The position numbers were made by a program, and so were the translations under genes. Source: Opitutaceae bacterium (GTDB lineage Bacteria > Verrucomicrobiota > Verrucomicrobiia > Opitutales > Opitutaceae). Taken from it: a stretch of DNA of 64,000 nucleotides. This document shows positions 16,296 through 53,454 of this stretch, piece after piece. The notes under the pieces are model-generated. The model was not told the origin of the DNA. It saw nothing but the letters and a program-made list of their open reading frames with translations, and did no database searches. The DNA lies in contig DASZQN010000045.1 in assembly GCA_035549635.1 (NCBI GenBank), forward strand, positions 9,286 through 73,285. Direction: 5' to 3'. Positions within the stretch are counted from its first letter, which is position 1; each line of letters begins with the position of its first letter.

Positions 16296-16898
16296 ATGAC
16301 CGCCCACCGCTCCGTCACATCCGGGACCCCCGCCACCGCCGTTCCGGCCGGCGCCCGGACGTCCCGTGCGCGGCGCGGCCGGGGATTCACCCTGGCGGAG
16401 GTGATGATGTCGGTGACGATCTTCGCGATGCTCTCGCTCGGCGTCTATCAGATGCTGATCAAGTCCTATGAGCTGAGCGCGATCACCCGGTACCGGGACG
16501 ATGCCCGCGCCGTGCTGCTGACCTTCGCCGACCAGTTTTCGCGCCTCCAGACGACCCAGACCCACAGCGGGACCGCCTATGCCCGCTACCTCTTCCAACC
16601 CGCCGCCTCCCCGACGGGGACCGGCCTGCAGTGGGGTTCGTTGAGCGACCAGGATTCGCTCACGGCTCTGACATCGGTTCCCTCCCTCTCAGTGACGATC
16701 GGAAATTCGGCGGGCGGAAACGGCATTCCCGCCGCCATCACGCGCACGGTGGTGCCGCTCAATTCCGACGGCACCACCGCCGGCTCGGTGACCTATACCG
16801 CTGCGGGTTACATGCTCCTCGGTACGTTCACGGCCACCTACTCTGTTTTCGGCCATACCTACGTCCAGAGTGTCTCGGTCCTGCGCGCCGCCCCATGA
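16296..16898 (+). CDS. Prepilin-type N-terminal cleavage/methylation domain protein (minor pseudopilin 1)
   Basis: Class III signal: a basic leader ending RRGRG, then FTLAEVMMSVTIFAMLSLGVYQML (G-F-T-L-x-E consensus with Glu+5). 200 aa, typical pseudopilin size. Confidence 0.75.
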   Translation: MTAHRSVTSGTPATAVPAGARTSRARRGRGFTLAEVMMSVTIFAMLSLGVYQMLIKSYELSAITRYRDDARAVLLTFADQFSRLQTTQTHSGTAYARYLFQPAASPTGTGLQWGSLSDQDSLTALTSVPSLSVTIGNSAGGNGIPAAITRTVVPLNSDGTTAGSVTYTAAGYMLLGTFTATYSVFGHTYVQSVSVLRAAP

Positions 16899-18412
16899 TC
16901 CCGACGCCGTCACAATCGAGCGCCCGCCGCCCCCGGAAATCCGGGGGCTTCACGCTGGTCGAGCTCATGGTGTCGGCGACGCTGGGAGCGCTGGTGCTGG
17001 CCGCCGCGGCGTCGATCATCGTGATGACGACCCGCACGGTGTACAAGAACACCATGGTCGACGACGCGGTGAGCACCACCCGCAAGGTCCAGGAGCACCT
17101 CAACAAGGAAATCTCCGTCTCCGTCAGCCAAAGCACGCCGATCAAGATCCAGCCGGTCTTTTCCAATCCCTCCTCCACCACCCCGGTTCGCTACGCCACG
17201 ATCACCTATCGCGTGACGATCGGCTCCTTCTCCACCGTCTATACGGCCACGGACAAGTCCAGCAGCTCGATCGTGCTCAACTCCCCGGCGGACGTGCAGC
17301 CCGCCATCGGCGACTACCTCATGATCGACAGCCCGCTGCTGGGCTCCGCCGGTCCCCCGATCGTGGGTGGCGCCCTGATCACCGCCGTGGACGACCACCG
17401 TTCCAGCGGATCCGCCGGGACCATCACCCTCACGCTGGCGGACTCGATCGACAATTCCACCTACGGCACCTCGCACATCGACATTGACGCCGGCACCATC
17501 GCCAGCATCCAGCGCGAGCGCAAATACGAGACCGTCGACGGCGGGAGCGCCGCGGTCACCGAGCTGCATTGGTATTCCTCGACCGCCTCCGGCACGCCCT
17601 ACCAGGTGCTTTCCACCAATGTGGATTCCACCGATCGCTATCTTTTCGCGCAGGTCCCGGACGACCCGAACGCCCTCGAACCGTCCGTCAGCTGGCGCTT
17701 CCGGTTTCTCTCGTCGGAAACCAATCGCTACCTGCCCGGCTCGAAGCCGAGCTACTACCAGGCCAATTACGCCGAGGGCCTGCTCATGCCGAAGTCCGGC
17801 AACCCGCTGAACGTCTCCTCCTACGCCGGCATCACGACGTCCACCTCCACGACGACGACGACGAGCACGTCGACCAGCACCTCGACCACAACCTCGACGT
17901 CCACTTCGACCACTTCGACCACCAGTTCCAGCACCTCCATCTCCACGACGACTTCGACCACGTCGTCCATCTCCACGACGACTTCGTCTTCGAGCACCAC
18001 CTCGGTCGCGACCACCACCACGTCCACCTCGGTGACGACGACCACGTCGACGACCTCGACGTCGACGACGTCCATCTCGACGACCACCACGTCCACCACC
18101 TCGACGACGTCCATCTCCACGACGACGACGTCCACCACCTCGACGACGTCCATCTCGACGACCACCACGTCCACCACCAGCACGTCGTCGACCTCCATCT
18201 CGACATCGTCGACATCCTCGACCTCGACCTCGTCCTCGGTCACGACCACCTCGACGTCCACCTCGTCCACTTCGAGTTCGGTGTCGACCACCTCGACGTC
18301 GAGCACCTCGAGCACCACGTCGATTTCGACCACCACGACGTCCAGCTCGACCTCCAGTTCCACCAGTATCTCCACGACCACAACCACCACCTCCATCGTC
18401 TTCGATGGTTAG
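16895..18412 (+). CDS. Prepilin-type pseudopilin with 187-aa C-terminal poly-Ser/Thr tract
   Basis: ATG 16895 overlaps the upstream stop (ATGA). The leader is MIPTPSQSSARRPRKSG followed by GFTLVELMVSATLGALVLAAAASIIVM. A globular region of ~290 aa is followed by residues 314-500, which consist only of S/T plus a few I/V/A. The protein ends IVFDG. Confidence 0.75.
   Translation: MIPTPSQSSARRPRKSGGFTLVELMVSATLGALVLAAAASIIVMTTRTVYKNTMVDDAVSTTRKVQEHLNKEISVSVSQSTPIKIQPVFSNPSSTTPVRYATITYRVTIGSFSTVYTATDKSSSSIVLNSPADVQPAIGDYLMIDSPLLGSAGPPIVGGALITAVDDHRSSGSAGTITLTLADSIDNSTYGTSHIDIDAGTIASIQRERKYETVDGGSAAVTELHWYSSTASGTPYQVLSTNVDSTDRYLFAQVPDDPNALEPSVSWRFRFLSSETNRYLPGSKPSYYQANYAEGLLMPKSGNPLNVSSYAGITTSTSTTTTTSTSTSTSTTTSTSTSTTSTTSSSTSISTTTSTTSSISTTTSSSSTTSVATTTTSTSVTTTTSTTSTSTTSISTTTTSTTSTTSISTTTTSTTSTTSISTTTTSTTSTSSTSISTSSTSSTSTSSSVTTTSTSTSSTSSSVSTTSTSSTSSTTSISTTTTSSSTSSSTSISTTTTTTSIVFDG
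17834..18394 (+). repeat. In-frame low-complexity Ser/Thr-coding tract (561 bp) built from ACG/ACC/TCG/TCC/AGC codons
   Basis: Translated directly in the frame of CDS 16895..18412. There are no stops and no Pro, Gly or charged residues. The tract generates long spurious ORFs in other frames and on the opposite strand. Confidence 0.9.
18068..18184 (+). repeat. Three tandem 39-bp units each encoding TSISTTTTSTTST
   Basis: Units at 18068-18106, 18107-18145 and 18146-18184. The peptides are identical, while the DNA differs at synonymous positions (TCG/TCC, ACC ACC/ACG ACG, TCG/AGC). Confidence 0.9.
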
Positions 18413-18436
18413 GCCGGCGGCCGTCCTTCCCTTGTC

Positions 18437-20368
18437 ATGCCCATGAAAACTCACGCCCAACGCGGCAGTGTGCTGGTCACGACCCTCGTCTTTCTCACCA
18501 TCATCATCATTGGTGCGTTTGCCGTCTTCCAGCTGGCCCTGAACTCGTTCAAGAATTCCGAGCGCAACGAGCTGCGCGCCCGCGCCCGCGCGGTCGCCGA
18601 AAGCGAGCTCGAGTACCTGTACTACAATTTCGAAGGGCTGATCGTCGGCGGATCCTCGGCCAACAACGTGCCGTCGAATTTCTCGGCTTTCTGCGACCTC
18701 TCCAGCACACCGACGACGGACCATCCGCCCTTTACCGCCGCCCACCAGGCGCAGAACGACGGCTGGGTCGTCCGCCGCTCGATCACGTTCGACCAGACCG
18801 TGACCGGCACGATCCCGGGCACAACCAAGACCGGCACGATCTCCTATCTGACCGCGAAGATCGAGGTCGTTCCCGGCGCCCGGAGTTCGTCCTACAACAC
18901 GCTGGCCGTGCGCGTGGGACGCCGCTTCAACAACTCGACGACGTCGATCTTCCAGTACAGCATCTTCTTCCAAGGCGACCTGGAACTCGCGCCGAGCGGC
19001 GTGACCACCATCACCGGCGACATCGCGGCCAACGGCAGCATCTACATGGGCGCAAGCAGCGGCGGCACCCTCACCATCAACAACCAGATCCGCCATCTTT
19101 CCGGCTATTACTTCAACGAGGACTCCGCGGGCGCGGCGACGTACCGCAAGCCCGGCACCTGGAATGCCGCGACCGGCACCATCGTCACCACCGACACGAC
19201 CTCCCTCAACGCGCCCCTGTTCGGCACCTCCCAGATCAGCCAGTCCGAGACGATGAACTCGCCGGAGAATCTCCTCGGCGGCCTCGACGCCGACGCGCTC
19301 GCCACTTCGCGCAACGACCTGTTCGGCGCGACCGACACCCCGGCCAACCTGGCCATCGCCGAAAACAACGTCTATCGCTCCCTCATCGCTCCCCCTCCCT
19401 CCGCGGCTTCCACCGACGAGTATCCCACCGGGACCAACCTCAGCACCACTTCAGACGACGCCAGCCTCAACGCCCTCCGCGCGTATACCCGCGCGGGCGT
19501 GATCATCACGGTGGGCCGCACCGACAATGGCGATGGCACTTACAGTTATCCGGTCACCTTCACCGAGACCCGGTCCGGCGTCTCCACCACGGTGCCCGCC
19601 AGCACCTACGCCGGCGTCGTCACCAGCACGAGCATGTACGACCAGCGGGAGGGAAAATACGTCACGATCACCGATATCGATGTCGGTGCCCTCAAGACGA
19701 AGTTGTCCGCCAGCTTCCCCAACGATGCCAGCGGGCAGCCCACCTTTAACGGGCTGCTCTACGTGAACCTCAAGGATGGAGTGACCACCAATCCCGCCGC
19801 CGTCCGCCTGAACAACGCGGCGACGACGCCCGGCGTCGATACCGGCAGCGGATTTTCCGTCGCGACCAACGGCGGCCTCTACGTCCGGGGCAGCTACAAC
19901 ACCACGCCCTACGTCGATCCCAACACCGGCGTCAGTTCCAACAACCCCTGCATGCTGATGAGCGACGCGCTCACCATTCTCTCTTCCTCCTGGAATGACG
20001 CCAACGCCGGACCCACCTCCGACATCAGCCAGCGCGTCGCGACCACCGGCACCACCACGATCAACTCCGGCATCCTCACCGGCAACGTCCCGGCCTCCGC
20101 CACCGTGGCGAGCGGCGGCGCCCAGAACCTCGTGCGCTTCCTCGAGAACTGGACCGACAACAGCGGCAACAAGGGCACGGTGACCTTCAACGGCTCGCTC
20201 GGGCGGCTGTTCTCCTCGAAATATTTCACCGCCGCCTACCAGCAGCCCGGGCAGATCTACACGGTGCCGAACCGCAACTTCACGTTCAACACGGCGATGA
20301 AGACCAAGCGGCCGCCGGGCTCGCCGACGATCACCGCCTTCAGCCGCGGCACTTTCTTCACCTGGTAA
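18437..20368 (+). CDS. Large PilX/GspK-like minor pilin-like secreted protein
   Basis: 643 aa. The N-terminus QRGSVLVTTLVFLTIIIIGAFAVFQLAL lacks Glu+5, as in GspK/PilX-type proteins, and is followed by the PilX_N-like RARARAVAESELEYL. The remainder is T/S/N/G-rich and probably beta-rich. It starts 24 bp after the preceding pseudopilin. Confidence 0.65.
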   Translation: MPMKTHAQRGSVLVTTLVFLTIIIIGAFAVFQLALNSFKNSERNELRARARAVAESELEYLYYNFEGLIVGGSSANNVPSNFSAFCDLSSTPTTDHPPFTAAHQAQNDGWVVRRSITFDQTVTGTIPGTTKTGTISYLTAKIEVVPGARSSSYNTLAVRVGRRFNNSTTSIFQYSIFFQGDLELAPSGVTTITGDIAANGSIYMGASSGGTLTINNQIRHLSGYYFNEDSAGAATYRKPGTWNAATGTIVTTDTTSLNAPLFGTSQISQSETMNSPENLLGGLDADALATSRNDLFGATDTPANLAIAENNVYRSLIAPPPSAASTDEYPTGTNLSTTSDDASLNALRAYTRAGVIITVGRTDNGDGTYSYPVTFTETRSGVSTTVPASTYAGVVTSTSMYDQREGKYVTITDIDVGALKTKLSASFPNDASGQPTFNGLLYVNLKDGVTTNPAAVRLNNAATTPGVDTGSGFSVATNGGLYVRGSYNTTPYVDPNTGVSSNNPCMLMSDALTILSSSWNDANAGPTSDISQRVATTGTTTINSGILTGNVPASATVASGGAQNLVRFLENWTDNSGNKGTVTFNGSLGRLFSSKYFTAAYQQPGQIYTVPNRNFTFNTAMKTKRPPGSPTITAFSRGTFFTW

Positions 20369-47974: not shown

Positions 47975-49210
47975 CTAGAACCGGTAATTCACGCCGAAGC
48001 GGAATCCCTGCATGCTGCTCAGGTCCACGCGCGTCGAATAGGTGGCCGTGTCGTCCAGGCCGGGACTCGTATTCTGCACAATCGTCTGCGTGAAGCTGCC
48101 GGTGCTCTGGTAAACCGCGCCGAGATAGAAGGCCGTCCGGTTGGACATCCAGTACTCCATGCTGGCGTCGGCATAATATCCCGGCAGGAAATGGCTCTGG
48201 GTATCCGAGACGTCGGAAAAGATCTCGTTGCCCGTATCGGGCTTGAATTCCTGTTCGACCGAGTAGGTCGTCCCCGCATACACCAGCGCGCCGCCCAGGC
48301 TCAGTGTCGCCCGGAAATTGGTGGTCACCGGGAAAACCAGGGTCGGGCCCACGCGGAAGGTGTAATAGGCCCCGTGGAGGTGATAGTGGTTCATCACGCT
48401 CACGGTGTCGGTCGTGGTGGTCTGCGTGCGGGTCTCGGGCGTGTTGCCGAGGAGGACGGAGCTGTCGACCTGCACGGTCTGCGCCGTGCCGTCGGCATTC
48501 AGGAGGGTGTTGCCGCTCGAGTCCGTCAGCGGGACGCTGCTGCTGGACGGCGCCGAGTACGGCGGGGTCGGCGCGGGCGCCCCATTGAGCGAGTAGGTAT
48601 CGGTGATCGTCGTGATGTTGGCCTTCTCGAAGCTCGTCATCTTCGAGGCGAGATCGTTGATGCTCAGGCCGGCGGAGATGCTCCAGTCGAAGCGGCCGGC
48701 GATCTTGCCGATGTCGCGGGCGAGGACCACCTCGTTGCCGAAGCTGAGACCGGGGTTCTTCGAGCGCGGGCCGCTGTCGACCACGTCCGCCGTGTAGGCG
48801 TGCATCGCGATCGTCCCATCTCCCACGATCTGTTTCGCATCGGCGAAACCCCAGGTATTCGTGCTGCCGTCCGGCGTGATCAGCAGGCTCACCACCCCGC
48901 CGTTGCCATCGTCGATCGAGACCGTGCGCTGGTCCACGCCGACGTCGCCGTCGTGGTAAATCCGGGTTTCGCCCGTGCCCGTCGTGTCCGCGATATGCTG
49001 GGCTTCATCCGTGACATGACCGAAACCGTGGAAGCTGGATTTCGCGCCCGACAACCCCCGCATGCCGTAGGTCAGGGTGAACTTGGGGAGGTAAATGTAG
49101 ACGTCCGTGTCGAAAAAGAGGTTCGTGGGCGGCTCCGGCTCCGAATCGGGCTCGGCATAGACGGCTGTGGCGGTGAGCAGGCAGCAGAGCGCGATGAAGC
49201 GTTTTTTCAT
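47975..49210 (-). CDS. Outer-membrane beta-barrel protein, unknown substrate
   Basis: Start MKKRFIALCCLLTATAVYA (signal peptide). Alternating beta-strand-like pattern and a C-terminal ...GFRFGVNYRF with terminal Phe typical of OMPs. Confidence 0.65.
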   Translation of the reverse strand: MKKRFIALCCLLTATAVYAEPDSEPEPPTNLFFDTDVYIYLPKFTLTYGMRGLSGAKSSFHGFGHVTDEAQHIADTTGTGETRIYHDGDVGVDQRTVSIDDGNGGVVSLLITPDGSTNTWGFADAKQIVGDGTIAMHAYTADVVDSGPRSKNPGLSFGNEVVLARDIGKIAGRFDWSISAGLSINDLASKMTSFEKANITTITDTYSLNGAPAPTPPYSAPSSSSVPLTDSSGNTLLNADGTAQTVQVDSSVLLGNTPETRTQTTTTDTVSVMNHYHLHGAYYTFRVGPTLVFPVTTNFRATLSLGGALVYAGTTYSVEQEFKPDTGNEIFSDVSDTQSHFLPGYYADASMEYWMSNRTAFYLGAVYQSTGSFTQTIVQNTSPGLDDTATYSTRVDLSSMQGFRFGVNYRF

Positions 49211-49276
49211 GCAGGGTCGCCTGAAGACAGCGGGAAAGAGGACAAGGTTCAAGAAAAGTCTTGGACGGCCGCGCGG

Positions 49277-49842: not shown

Positions 49843-50547
49843 TTATTCGTTGAACTCGTCGAATTTCTTCGCCGCCTCGTCCTGCGCCCGGTGGGCCGCG
49901 GCCACCTGCGGGTCGGCCGCGCCCTCGCGCTCCCGGAGCTTCTTCTCCCGCTTGTTCAAGTCGTCGGCGCGCTGCTCCAGCTCCGTCTCCTTCTCCTGCT
50001 GCTGCATCATCTTTTCGAAAAGCTTGGACTCGTTCTCCTCCATGAAGCGCTCGCGCTCCGTGATCGCGGCCTTCTGCTCCTTGAGCGAGGCCTCCTGCTG
50101 GTCGAGCGCGGCCTTGAGCTGCTCCAGCGCGGCCTGCTCCTCCTTCGACACGGCGGCCTTCGCCTCCGGCGCCTTCTTCTTCGTCGCGGCCATGACCTTC
50201 TCCCGCGCGACCAGCAGCGCCTCCGCCTCCGCGAGGTCGCGCTCCCGCTCGATCTGCCGCGCCTCCGTGTCCTCGACGGCCCGCTCGCGCTCGACCAGCC
50301 GCATCTCCAGCGCGCGGAGCGAGCGCTCGAGCGCGGAGACCTGGTCGCCGTTCAGGACCTTGCTCTCCTCGCCCCACGGCGTCCGCGTGGCGGAGACGAT
50401 CTGCGCGATCTGCTTGCGCGCCTCGGCCGAGGCCGCCGAGAGCTCGACCGCCGAGACGGGGCGCCGCCGCAGCGTCAGCGCGGGCGCGGCGTTGGTGGGC
50501 TTGACCGGGAACTTGATCGGGCTCGGGGGACCAGGCGCGTCCGGCAT
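49843..50547 (-). CDS. Coiled-coil protein, unknown function
   Basis: 234 aa. A Pro-rich N-terminus is followed by ~170 aa of E/K/A/R/L-rich heptad-like sequence (ALERSLRALEMRLVERERAVEDTEARQIERERDLAEAEALL...). It starts 6 bp after the upstream gene. Confidence 0.6.
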   Translation of the reverse strand: MPDAPGPPSPIKFPVKPTNAAPALTLRRRPVSAVELSAASAEARKQIAQIVSATRTPWGEESKVLNGDQVSALERSLRALEMRLVERERAVEDTEARQIERERDLAEAEALLVAREKVMAATKKKAPEAKAAVSKEEQAALEQLKAALDQQEASLKEQKAAITERERFMEENESKLFEKMMQQQEKETELEQRADDLNKREKKLREREGAADPQVAAAHRAQDEAAKKFDEFNE

Positions 50548-50553
50548 GGCGGA

Positions 50554-51393
50554 TTATTTCTTGAAGAGCTTGGAAAAGAAGCCCGATTTCTTCTCTCCAC
50601 CCATACCCCGGGAGGAGCCCAGGAGCGGCTTCAGGAGCTCCGCGACCTTCGCCTCGGCCGCCGGGTTGCCGAGCACCACGAGGTGCCGGGACAGCGAGCC
50701 GCCGGCGGCGAGATCCTGCTTGAGCGCGTCGAGTTCCGGCTTGAACCACTCCGCGGCCGCGGCCGCGCGCTCGGCGGGCGCCGGCGCCGCCGCCGCCTGG
50801 GCGAGCGCCTCGAACAGGTGCAGGCCCTTCGCGCCCGGGCGGAACGGCAGGCACTGCGCCAGCGTCTGCTCATCGATGTGCGAAAGCGAGTTGAGCAGGC
50901 GGCGAAAATCGCCGCCGACGATCACGTTCTGCGACATGTCCTGCGCGAAGACCGCGAACCCGCCGAGGGTCGTGAGCTTTTCCAGCTTGCAGAACTCGCG
51001 CGTGTCCGGCCCGAGCGCGGTGAGCGCGATCGGAAAGGCCTCGGGGATCTCCAGCCGCGCCATGTTCTTCAGCATCTGGTTGTCCTTTTTCTCCGCCGCG
51101 GCCGTCTGCGCGACCATGTCGCCGAAGGGATCATCGAAGGCGAGCGTGTCCTTGAGCATGCCGATGAGCTGGTCCGCGCGCGTGGGCGGCTGGCCCTTGA
51201 GCACCAGCAGCGCCACCATCTCGTCGTAAGGCAGCTCGATGTATTTCGCCGGCGTCTCGTCCTTGCCCTTCACCGGCCAGTCGGGGCCGTCGAGGTTCTG
51301 CGCCAGGCTGCTCAGCGCGGTGTTGACCATGATGGACGAGGCGAAGGCGGCGCGCACGTCGTCCCAGTCCTTGGCGGTGTATTTGTCGGGCAT
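50554..51393 (-). CDS. Hypothetical protein with C-terminal amphipathic MinD-like tail
   Basis: Start MPDKYTAKDW (ATG 51393-51391). 279 aa with no recognised domain. The C-terminus is ...GGEKKSGFFSKLFKK. Confidence 0.6.
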   Translation of the reverse strand: MPDKYTAKDWDDVRAAFASSIMVNTALSSLAQNLDGPDWPVKGKDETPAKYIELPYDEMVALLVLKGQPPTRADQLIGMLKDTLAFDDPFGDMVAQTAAAEKKDNQMLKNMARLEIPEAFPIALTALGPDTREFCKLEKLTTLGGFAVFAQDMSQNVIVGGDFRRLLNSLSHIDEQTLAQCLPFRPGAKGLHLFEALAQAAAAPAPAERAAAAAEWFKPELDALKQDLAAGGSLSRHLVVLGNPAAEAKVAELLKPLLGSSRGMGGEKKSGFFSKLFKK

Positions 51394-51463
51394 GACAGGT
51401 GAGATTGAGTACTGGCGTTGGTTAAGCGGAAAGGGAGGCGGCGGCAAGCTCGCGCGCCGCGGG

Positions 51464-52360
51464 TCAGAGCTGCGCGCCCTGCCGGATGATCTCGGTGGCC
51501 AGCTTGCGGTAGTCGCTCACCACGCTGTCCTGGGTGCTCTCGTCGGTGGTGTCGCCCACCAGGACGACGGGCAGGCCGAGCGTGACCGCGCGGCGCACCA
51601 CCATCGCGTCGCGGATCTGCGTGTCGAAGATCTTCGCGTTCTGTCCGACGCGCTTGGCCGCGCGAAATTGGTTCAGGCGAAGCTGCATCCGCATCTTCGG
51701 CACCTCGATGTCCACGCCGGTCTTGATCGAGTTGAAGATCAGGCCCTGGACCTGCGCGGGCACGCCCATCGCCGCCTTCCGGAAGCTGGCCGAGAGCTGG
51801 TGAAACTTGCCGAGCTTCTCGACCAGCAGCGTGAAGCCGATGAGGCTGAGCGCATCCGGATTCGAGGGCACGTAGATCTCGTTCGCCGAGAAAATGCCGC
51901 ATTGCGAGGCGCGGAGGATGTTCGGCGGGCAGTCGAAGAGGACGAAGTCGTAGTTCTCCTCCACCGCCGCGAGCTGCTCGGCGAAGATCACGTACGCGGG
52001 GCGCTTCGGATCCCCGGTATACTCGTTCTCGAGGTCGACGAGGTTGAAGGCGGTCGGCGCGAGATCCAGGCCCGGCAGCAGCTTCTCGCCGGCTTTGCCC
52101 TCCACGACGTCCTTGATGATGATGTCCTTCAGCTGCACCTTGCCCGGATCGAAGATCGAGTAGATCGCACCTTCGCCGGTCGTGTTGATCTTGTTCCAGC
52201 GTTCCAGCCGGAGCAGCCAGATGCTCGCGTTGGACTGCGTGTCAAAATCGCAGAGGAGGACGCGCTTGCCCTGCTTCGCGAGGCAAGCGGCCGTGTTGAC
52301 GATGAGCGAGGTCTTGCCGACGCCGCCCTTGTAGTTGATGAATGCGATCTTGCGTGCCAT
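51464..52360 (-). CDS. ParA/MinD-family P-loop ATPase (orphan)
   Basis: Start MARKIAFINYKGGVGKTS (deviant Walker A KGGVGKT), followed by LLCDFDTQSNAS and FVLFDCPPN (Walker B region). 298 aa. No parB, parS or origin-type neighbours. Confidence 0.88.
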   Translation of the reverse strand: MARKIAFINYKGGVGKTSLIVNTAACLAKQGKRVLLCDFDTQSNASIWLLRLERWNKINTTGEGAIYSIFDPGKVQLKDIIIKDVVEGKAGEKLLPGLDLAPTAFNLVDLENEYTGDPKRPAYVIFAEQLAAVEENYDFVLFDCPPNILRASQCGIFSANEIYVPSNPDALSLIGFTLLVEKLGKFHQLSASFRKAAMGVPAQVQGLIFNSIKTGVDIEVPKMRMQLRLNQFRAAKRVGQNAKIFDTQIRDAMVVRRAVTLGLPVVLVGDTTDESTQDSVVSDYRKLATEIIRQGAQL

Positions 52361-52430
52361 CCAGTGAAAGACGTTAAGAAGCGTTGCCTGAGCCGGTTGA
52401 AGATGCCACCTCGGCCCTGACGGGCGAGCC

Positions 52431-52464
52431 AAAAAAAAGCGGCCGCCGCTTTCATTAATTTTTT
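52431..52464. terminator. Terminator-like hairpin flanked by A8 and T6 inside a divergent intergenic region
   Basis: AAAAAAAA (52431-52438), then a GC stem AAAGCGG-CCG-CCGCTTT (52436-52452), then TTTTTT at 52459-52464. It lies between the divergent ParA-like and REC gene starts. Confidence 0.35.
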
Positions 52465-52582: not shown

Positions 52583-52978
52583 ATGCCGCTCACCATCCTC
52601 AGTGTGGACGACGAACGCGATGTCACCGACCTGGTGCATTTCCATCTCACGCGGGCCGGGTACCGCGTGACCACGGCCTCCTGCGGGCGCGAGGCGCTCG
52701 AGAGTGTCCGGCTGGTTCCGCCGGACCTGATCCTGCTCGATCTCATGCTGCCCGACGTGGACGGCTTCGCGATCTGCGAGATCCTGCGACGGCAGGCGGC
52801 GACCGCGACGATCCCGATCGTGATCCTCACCGCCTGGGCGACCACCGACGCCCACAGCCTCGGCCTCGAGCTGGGAGCGCTCGACTACCTGACCAAGCCC
52901 TTCAGTCCGAAGGAACTCGTCGAGCGGGTGCGGCGCCTGCTCGACCTGCGGCCGGCGGCGCCTACGCTGGGCGGGTGA
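52583..52978 (+). CDS. Stand-alone receiver-domain response regulator
   Basis: 131 aa with ILSVDDERDV, LILLDLMLPDVDGF, IVILTA and YLTKPF. No output domain. Confidence 0.85.
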   Translation: MPLTILSVDDERDVTDLVHFHLTRAGYRVTTASCGREALESVRLVPPDLILLDLMLPDVDGFAICEILRRQAATATIPIVILTAWATTDAHSLGLELGALDYLTKPFSPKELVERVRRLLDLRPAAPTLGG

Positions 52979-53454
52979 ACAAGCTCCTCCTTCGCGACGA
53001 GATCCTCGCCCGGCTGCAGCGCGAGCTCGCCACGCAGGCGGCCGCGGCGCACCAGACCCGCGACGAGGCCATCAGCGAGGAGAGCAAGGCCGAGAACAAG
53101 TACGACACGCGCAGCATCGAGGCGGGCTATCTCGCCGAGGGACAGGCGCGGATGACAGCCGAGATCCAGGCGCGCATCGACGCCTACCGCAGTTTCTTCC
53201 CGCCGGACTTCCCGCCCGGCGCATCCATCGCGGTCGGTGCACTCGTCGAAGTGGAAAGCGGCGGACGGCGCACCTGGTATTTTCTCGGTCCGCGCGCGGG
53301 CGGGATGGAAATTCCCCTCGATGGCACTTCCGTGCTCGTGCTCACGCCGCAATCACCGCTCGGGCGGGAACTGCTGGGCCGCCGCGAGGGTGACGCGATC
53401 GCCGCCCCTGCGCGCGGCGCGAGGGCGCCGCAGCGCATCGTCCGCGTGGAGTGA
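52975..53454 (+). CDS. GreA/GreB-family transcription factor-like protein
   Basis: GTG start overlapping the REC stop (GTGA). N-terminal coiled coil with an acidic tip region (EESKAENKYDTRS). C-terminal Gre-like domain (GASIAVGALVEVE...YFLGP...LTPQSPLGRELLGRREGDAI). Confidence 0.7.
   Translation: MNKLLLRDEILARLQRELATQAAAAHQTRDEAISEESKAENKYDTRSIEAGYLAEGQARMTAEIQARIDAYRSFFPPDFPPGASIAVGALVEVESGGRRTWYFLGPRAGGMEIPLDGTSVLVLTPQSPLGRELLGRREGDAIAAPARGARAPQRIVRVE

Follow-up and report, generated by a model that had tools for sequence, protein, structure and literature searches.

ParA/MinD ATPases are a general means by which bacteria place structures inside the cell, and new sets of partners have revealed new cargos or new uses of the ATPase cycle. 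What, then, does such an ATPase do when it is encoded beside two proteins that are annotated nowhere? This question is raised by a 64,000-nucleotide (nt) stretch of an Opitutaceae bacterium (assembly GCA_035549635.1, contig DASZQN010000045.1, positions 9,286-73,285 of the forward strand, hereafter the window), in which three genes follow one another on the minus strand: a ParA/MinD-family ATPase of 298 amino acids (aa) (51464..52360, ATG at 52360, beginning MARKIAFINYKGGVGKT), an all-alpha protein of 279 aa (50554..51393, identical to database protein P0001) and a coiled-coil protein of 234 aa (49843..50547, recognized from its open reading frame (ORF) and the helices of its AlphaFold2 model). 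An initial annotation, made from the letters of the window, had described this trio, with its sizes, common strand, KGGVGKT motif and 6-bp gap, and had taken it for a possible uncharacterised ParA-adaptor-scaffold system. All of these particulars hold, and the idea itself is supported, as a hypothesis and not as a proven function, by partners that match no known system, by conserved synteny and by the partner features described below. We consider it fairly probable that the three genes form one operon and encode a dedicated positioning system of ParA/MinD type that is specific to the Opitutales; literature searches for this module in Opitutaceae or Verrucomicrobia found no description.

The ATPase carries all catalytic motifs of the ParA/MinD (deviant Walker A) superfamily. 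The deviant Walker A motif YKGGVGKT, with signature lysine K11, occupies residues 10-17 and is invariant in seven orthologues of 62-79% identity, as are the P-loop and the Walker A' and Walker B aspartates D38, D40 and D143. Pfam AAA_31 was matched with 123 bits against a cut-off of 27 (E=1.4e-35) and PHROG 164, 'ParA-like partition protein', over the full length (E=2.5e-39), and the closest PDB relatives were Soj proteins (E ~1e-13). Only generic ParA/MinD models were matched in this way, and those of the named subfamilies in NCBIfam gave scores far below their cut-offs: 67 bits against 180 for partition ParA (NF041546), 55 against 348 for the RepA model of NCBIfam, 36.9 against 212.9 and 25.7 against 508 for the MinD models TIGR01968 and PRK10818, and 24.9 against 157.85 for the NCBIfam BcsQ model TIGR03371. 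Moreover, the alignment to MipZ (PF09140) was confined to residues 5-44 (the P-loop) of a profile of 262 positions, FleN in the PDB was matched weakly and by the P-loop only (E=7e-4), and no McdA or McdB entry was among the significant PDB matches. Therefore, by the defining features tested, the ATPase lies outside the MinD, partition ParA, BcsQ, MipZ, FlhG and McdAB families. Its N-terminus is not extended, and its C-terminus is neither hydrophobic nor amphipathic; the protein ends ...DYRKLATEIIRQGAQL, the last 38 residues having a net charge of -3, and the MinD-type tail of this system is not on the ATPase. Residues 181-260 have a net charge of +10 (median +10 and minimum +6 in 73 orthologues). 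In this superfamily a basic C-terminus goes with use of the nucleoid and a membrane-targeting sequence with use of the membrane (PMC11407121, PMC10241942). Because the ATPase has no membrane tail and a strongly basic C-terminal half, which is the ParA-like pattern, we infer that it would bind the nucleoid.

The middle protein had been described as having no recognisable domain, and this proved true of both partners: for the 279-aa protein, Pfam, NCBIfam, PADLOC, PHROGs and a profile search of the PDB gave nothing significant, and when the AlphaFold2 models of the two partners were compared with the PDB by Foldseek, the best match for either was no better than E=1.5. More than 1184 homologues of the 279-aa protein were found, all of them called 'hypothetical protein', and the named sources were Opitutaceae or Verrucomicrobia. 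The family is narrow, because a profile search that went exhaustively through 1.84 billion representative proteins returned only 195 clusters (50% identity) at E<=1e-3. When one genome per species was scanned, 382 species genomes yielded relatives, and the best 80 of the 382 all belong to Opitutales or other Verrucomicrobia; by these searches the 279-aa protein is an unannotated, Opitutales-restricted family. In its all-alpha AlphaFold2 model (mean predicted local distance difference test score, pLDDT, of 78), residues 1-87 make up an N-domain and residues 101-258 a C-domain; a linker with a conserved motif stands between the two, and a variable linker and then a basic-hydrophobic tail come after the C-domain. 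The linker motif, FDDPFGDM in the window (residues 86-93, 51115..51138, minus strand), follows the pattern FDxPFGxM, with F86, D87, P89, F90, G91 and M93 invariant in an alignment of 25 sequences, and it lies in a linker of low confidence (pLDDT <50 at residues 88-100); we regard it as a candidate short interaction motif.

At its C-terminus the 279-aa protein bears the tail KKSGFFSKLFKK (50557..50592, minus strand), which from its pattern and conservation is predicted to be an amphipathic membrane-targeting sequence, in agreement with the initial annotation, which had spoken of a membrane-tail protein. The consensus is KKxGFFxxLFKK, in which K269, G271 and F277 are invariant or nearly so, although a linker of variable length precedes them, and 79 of 87 orthologues have the basic-G-hydrophobic pattern, the median net charge being +4. 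It closely resembles the membrane-targeting sequence of E. coli MinD, KKGFLKRLFGG. The distant members of the family are 320-685 aa long and down to ~23% identical to the protein of the window, and those of 320-450 aa end in similar tails, for example PAKKGFFARLFSRG and GGFFAKLKALFSRG; in one distant member, P0281, the N-terminal region is present in a second copy. A hint of armadillo repeats at residues 133-182, from the profile search of the PDB, was set aside, as the per-repeat E-values were 50-90 and the summed E of 1e-3 was inflated by repeats in designed targets; the armadillo-like signal is a weak lead. Likewise, P0327 (422 aa, L087:549-1817), which might be taken for a natural fusion of the two partners, is too weak as evidence: it comes from a single 2.1-kb contig, and it aligns with the core of the coiled-coil protein over 64 residues at 30% identity (E=2e-4).

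For the 234-aa protein, 247 homologues were found at E<=1e-3, none with a nameable family, and Pfam, NCBIfam, PADLOC, PHROGs and the PDB profile search gave nothing significant. Some homologues (e.g. P0128, P0139 and P0216) bear the precomputed Pfam accession PF27881.1. The coiled coil claimed for this protein was borne out by the AlphaFold2 model (mean pLDDT 80), which has helices at 33-54, 67-124 and 135-233, the last two long, and a disordered N-terminus. The first 32 residues are disordered, yet they contain a conserved PI[KR]FP...LxLRRR pattern, and residues 9-30, SPIKFPVKPTNAAPALTLRRRP (50458..50523, minus strand, pLDDT 48-59), form a predicted ATPase-activating peptide, judged by conservation and disorder. 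In this peptide I11, F13, P14, L24 and L26 are invariant and K12, R28 and R29 nearly invariant, LxL[RK][RK] is present in 77 of 80 orthologues, and the first 35 residues have a median net charge of +4 versus -6 for the whole protein. A disordered N-terminal peptide of positive charge is the usual means by which partner proteins work on ParA/MinD ATPases (PMC10241942; for PomX, bioRxiv 10.1101/2025.12.01.691545), and a positively charged peptide, which the initial annotation had proposed to look for, is present, conserved and disordered in the coiled-coil protein. In addition, a short helix carries a conserved ATRxP[WF] motif, and the protein ends in a DEFNE motif (49846..49860, minus strand) found in 73 of the 80 orthologues.

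The three genes keep together. Among 82 loci with a gene for the 279-aa protein, the first set examined, the ATPase gene was directly upstream of the middle gene in all 82, and the colinear trio on one strand, with the coiled-coil gene after the middle gene, was present in 80. Seven further, distant contexts (L083-L086 and L088-L090; 90 related loci in all, ~1 Mb) also had the ATPase gene directly upstream, 62-79% identical, with the genes flanking the pair entirely different; in the distant clade the ATPase is 62-64% identical and the middle protein ~23%. With the proteins of the window as reference, the ATPase had a median identity across loci of 80%, the middle protein one of 64% and the coiled-coil protein one of 54%, versus 70% for the housekeeping neighbour IspH. 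This gradient, and a pair that is kept amid changed flanks, are what is expected of a conserved ATPase with fast-evolving dedicated adaptors. A lack of conserved synteny, one of the grounds on which the positioning module could have been dismissed, is likewise removed, because the pair persists in the distant loci with so conserved an ATPase. The module is conserved as part of the core genome across a whole order of Verrucomicrobiota, its ATPase more so than IspH, and it probably serves something central.

The distant clade also bears on the third protein. In L085, L086, L088 and L089 the coiled-coil protein is missing, and an unrelated, unannotated globular protein of ~240 aa is encoded upstream of the ATPase instead (L085:6281-6994, L086:308-1018, L088:170-895 and L089:3330-4052). 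This protein has a basic N-terminus, MxQRKYKVTT, and the C-terminus LPT[IF]DEF[ED] (e.g. LPTIDEFE), so that the DEF end is common to it and to the coiled-coil protein. As two unrelated proteins in one genetic slot share both ends, the ends suggest themselves as functional interfaces. Immediately upstream, L085 and L089 each have a gene for a Ser/Thr protein kinase, and in L088 a gene for a PP2C phosphatase adjoins the pair.

The arrangement in the window is operon-like. The three ORFs have a GC content of 0.88-0.97 at third versus 0.41-0.43 at second codon positions, in DNA of 66-68% GC, and because of this contrast we consider them genuine genes. The middle gene is separated from the ATPase gene by 70 nt and from the coiled-coil gene by 6 nt, and the median gaps across loci are 22.5 and 20 nt. 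About 75 nt upstream of the ATPase ATG lies a run of T followed by TTGGCTCGC (52424..52438, minus strand), and this T-run with TTGRCTCGC stands at the same distance from the ATPase start in 9 of 9 aligned loci, including the distant L083 and L084, although the DNA around it is unalignable among these nine. Read from its sequence and placing, this element probably represents an UP element with a -35 box and would belong to the promoter of the operon; no comparable promoter-like element was apparent between the three genes, and Rfam found nothing in the region upstream of the ATPase gene or elsewhere in the window. One operon fits both the short gaps and a promoter-like element located solely upstream of the ATPase gene. 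A terminator-like hairpin at 52435-52453, also upstream of the ATPase gene, was rejected, since it is not conserved and the conserved part reads better as a promoter.

The family of the ATPase, its intact catalytic motifs, the operon-like arrangement, the strict co-occurrence of the genes and the conserved motifs are observed facts. On this footing we propose the following mechanism, in which the surface used, the contacts and the stimulation of the ATPase are inferred. ATP-bound dimers of the ATPase would sit on the nucleoid, and the 279-aa protein would be held on the inner face of the cytoplasmic membrane by its C-terminal basic-hydrophobic tail. The coiled-coil protein would self-associate into a scaffold, and its disordered, arginine-rich N-terminal peptide would contact the ATPase dimer and stimulate ATP hydrolysis; ParB, MinE, McdB and PomX stimulate hydrolysis by their ATPases. 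Contacts within the complex would probably be made by the DEFNE end of the coiled-coil protein and the FDxPFGxM motif of the 279-aa protein. Hydrolysis near the membrane-tethered complex would locally clear away the ATPase, and the resulting gradient would bring the complex to a defined place relative to the nucleoid or hold it there. The unusual combination of a membrane tail on the adaptor with an ATPase that resembles the nucleoid binders would couple two surfaces that known systems use separately, and the RRR peptide, the FDxPFGxM motif, the DEF end and the tail are directly testable handles.

Which cargo would be placed in this way can be guessed. The PVC (Planctomycetes-Verrucomicrobia-Chlamydiae) superphylum is known for unusual cell organisation, and a comparative genome study inferred that MinC, MinD and MinE were lost at the PVC ancestor (PMC2474590), which puts the choice of division site in the FtsZ-using members in question. 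Because MinCDE is reported lost in this lineage and the module is conserved at the level of housekeeping genes, placement of the division site is our best guess. Further, the trio might be the Opitutales substitute for both Min and nucleoid occlusion, with the nucleoid-bound ATPase steering the membrane-tethered complex to mid-cell and so placing the FtsZ ring, a proposal that we put forward as a doubtful one. If true, it would be a third independently evolved ParA-based selection of the division site, after MipZ and PomXYZ, and the first such system to have its membrane anchor on a partner and not on the ATPase.

Several points weigh against the positioning mechanism and the guess at its cargo. 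DNA binding by the ATPase is deduced from charge, and the alignment to Soj stops at residue 184, so that the DNA-contact residues of Soj lie beyond the part that can be mapped. The predicted membrane anchoring draws on the pattern, position and conservation of the tail, whose helical hydrophobic moment (median 0.47) does not separate from that of shuffled sequences (0.43 +/- 0.16); MinD tails give 0.38-0.40 on the same scale. Finally, the reported loss of MinCDE is placed at the level of the PVC ancestor.

Among known systems the closest layout is that of PomXYZ, which places the division site on the nucleoid of Myxococcus xanthus, and the likeness is one of functional analogy, not homology. 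As there, one tail-less ParA-type ATPase goes with two dedicated, lineage-specific partners, one of them a coiled-coil protein whose basic N-terminal peptide activates the ATPase (predicted here), and this architecture is kept in 80 of the 82 loci; the two partners, or activators, of the PomXYZ ATPase have themselves been described as unusual (bioRxiv 10.1101/2025.12.01.691545). The armadillo-like hint in the 279-aa protein may be set beside the HEAT repeats of PomY, a weak likeness. The two systems differ in that searches of general libraries showed no relation of sequence or fold of either partner to any known protein, that a MinD-like tail is found on a partner here and PomX and PomY are not described with one, and that gene order, protein sizes and host (Verrucomicrobiota versus Myxococcota) are not the same. 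The trio resembles MinCDE in its ATPase with a deviant Walker A motif, in a conserved basic-hydrophobic tail at a C-terminus, of the KKGFLKRLF type, and in an activator that would act through a short peptide; however, the tail is on the partner here and on the ATPase in MinD, the ATPase fails the MinD models, and neither partner matches the MinC or MinE family in Pfam or NCBIfam. The McdAB system likewise joins a ParA-type ATPase on the nucleoid to a fast-evolving partner in which a basic, disordered N-terminus is combined with a coiled coil and with a conserved motif at the C-terminus (for the general features, PMC10241942 and PMC11407121), whereas the present ATPase has two partners and not one, and no microcompartment or shell-protein gene lies within ~6 kb of the trio in the window or in the related loci. 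Soj/ParA-Spo0J/ParB-parS supplies the best relatives of the ATPase in the PDB and the profile libraries, but the trio has neither ParB nor parS and falls well below the cut-off of the partition ParA model. FlhG/FleN differs in that no flagellar genes lie near the trio and that the present ATPase has no tail. Noc, a ParB-like nucleoid occlusion protein, binds DNA and carries an amphipathic membrane helix and has no ATPase partner; if our model is right, the likeness is a conceptual one, a link between nucleoid and membrane through an amphipathic helix, and nothing here resembles ParB.

Other explanations of the trio start from the same observations. The MinD-like tail of the 279-aa protein, the absence of a tail on the ATPase and the reported loss of MinCDE in the PVC lineage (PMC2474590) would also suit a split MinD, in which the 279-aa protein recruits the ATPase to the membrane and supplies the tail in trans, the coiled-coil protein plays the part of MinE or MinC, and the membrane, not the nucleoid, is the surface that is patterned. 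This we hold to be unlikely, because the ATPase scores higher as a ParA partition protein (PHROG 164) than as MinD (TIGR01968) and shares a strongly basic C-terminal half with nucleoid binders. The same nearness to partition ParA and Soj, in profiles and in structures, would be expected if the trio segregated DNA, of the chromosome or of an integrated element, with one partner as a novel centromere-binding protein in place of ParB, but the evidence renders this highly improbable. The only parS-like site in the window has three mismatches, which is chance level, the ParB box II motif (GERRxRA) was found neither in the window nor in the ~1 Mb of the 90 related loci, library scans detected no helix-turn-helix or ribbon-helix-helix domain in either partner, and it would be unusual for a centromere protein to carry a membrane tail. 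Moreover, the locus is not a mobile element, because it has core-genome synteny with IspH and the base composition of the trio is that of its flanks.

An assembly or regulatory ATPase of an envelope machine, like BcsQ, FlhG or TadZ, that works with the neighbouring barrel-like protein and TonB and positions nothing, would account for the barrel-like homologue found after the trio in 59 of the 82 loci, for TonB nearby in 31 of the 82 and for a score of 32 bits with the Pfam BcsQ model, which exceeds the threshold of that model. It is very unlikely nevertheless: the barrel gene is absent from L084, the flanks are wholly changed in L084-L090 with the ATPase-middle pair kept, the NCBIfam BcsQ score is far under its cut-off, and no cellulose, flagellar or pilus-assembly genes adjoin the trio. 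Nor is it credible, beyond a very slight chance, that three unrelated genes have stayed together merely through conserved gene order in a young lineage. Neighbours that are probably unrelated, such as the GreA-like gene and IspH, are indeed syntenic in many loci as well, but the pair survives where all other neighbours have changed, the gaps are short (6-70 nt in the window, 20-23 nt as medians), and whichever protein takes the third slot, related or not, always has a basic N-terminus and a DEF end. A defence-system reading was also tried and rejected, as the PADLOC matches were P-loop only or coiled-coil noise.

The genes around the proposed three-protein positioning module agree with the initial annotation, which had noted that genes or sites of the ParB, parS, min, flagellar, chemotaxis and cellulose kinds are missing nearby: neighbouring genes, parS scan and ParB-motif scan all concur, and no min, flagellar, chemotaxis-array, cellulose (bcs) or pilus-assembly gene is next to the trio. 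On one side lie a 425-aa outer-membrane barrel-like protein, a PagL-like deacylase and IspH, and on the other a receiver-domain protein, a GreA-like protein, TonB, a hybrid histidine kinase and a cyclase. The 425-aa protein (47975-49252, minus strand) has a signal peptide, a C-terminal ...GVNYRF barrel signature and no Pfam family. Its gene, syntenic within Opitutaceae, also follows the trio in L083 (27% identity, E=1e-31), and we rejected it as a fourth core member since it is absent from the distant L084. The stand-alone receiver-domain and GreA-like genes (52583-53454, plus strand) are divergent from the ATPase operon; of the 82 loci, 56 keep the GreA-like gene in this position and only 10 the receiver gene.

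Elsewhere in the window, a prepilin-type cluster lies at 16296-20368 on the plus strand, with GFTL[AV]E N-termini at 16296-16898 and in the ORF ending at 18412. The latter has a tail of ~190 residues made up of Ser/Thr repeats only and is followed by a 643-aa protein with a similar hydrophobic N-terminus; an antisense 'VVVVE' ORF at 17821-18396 is an artefact of the Ser/Thr repeat. The cluster has a lower GC content (0.64) and a strong negative GC skew.

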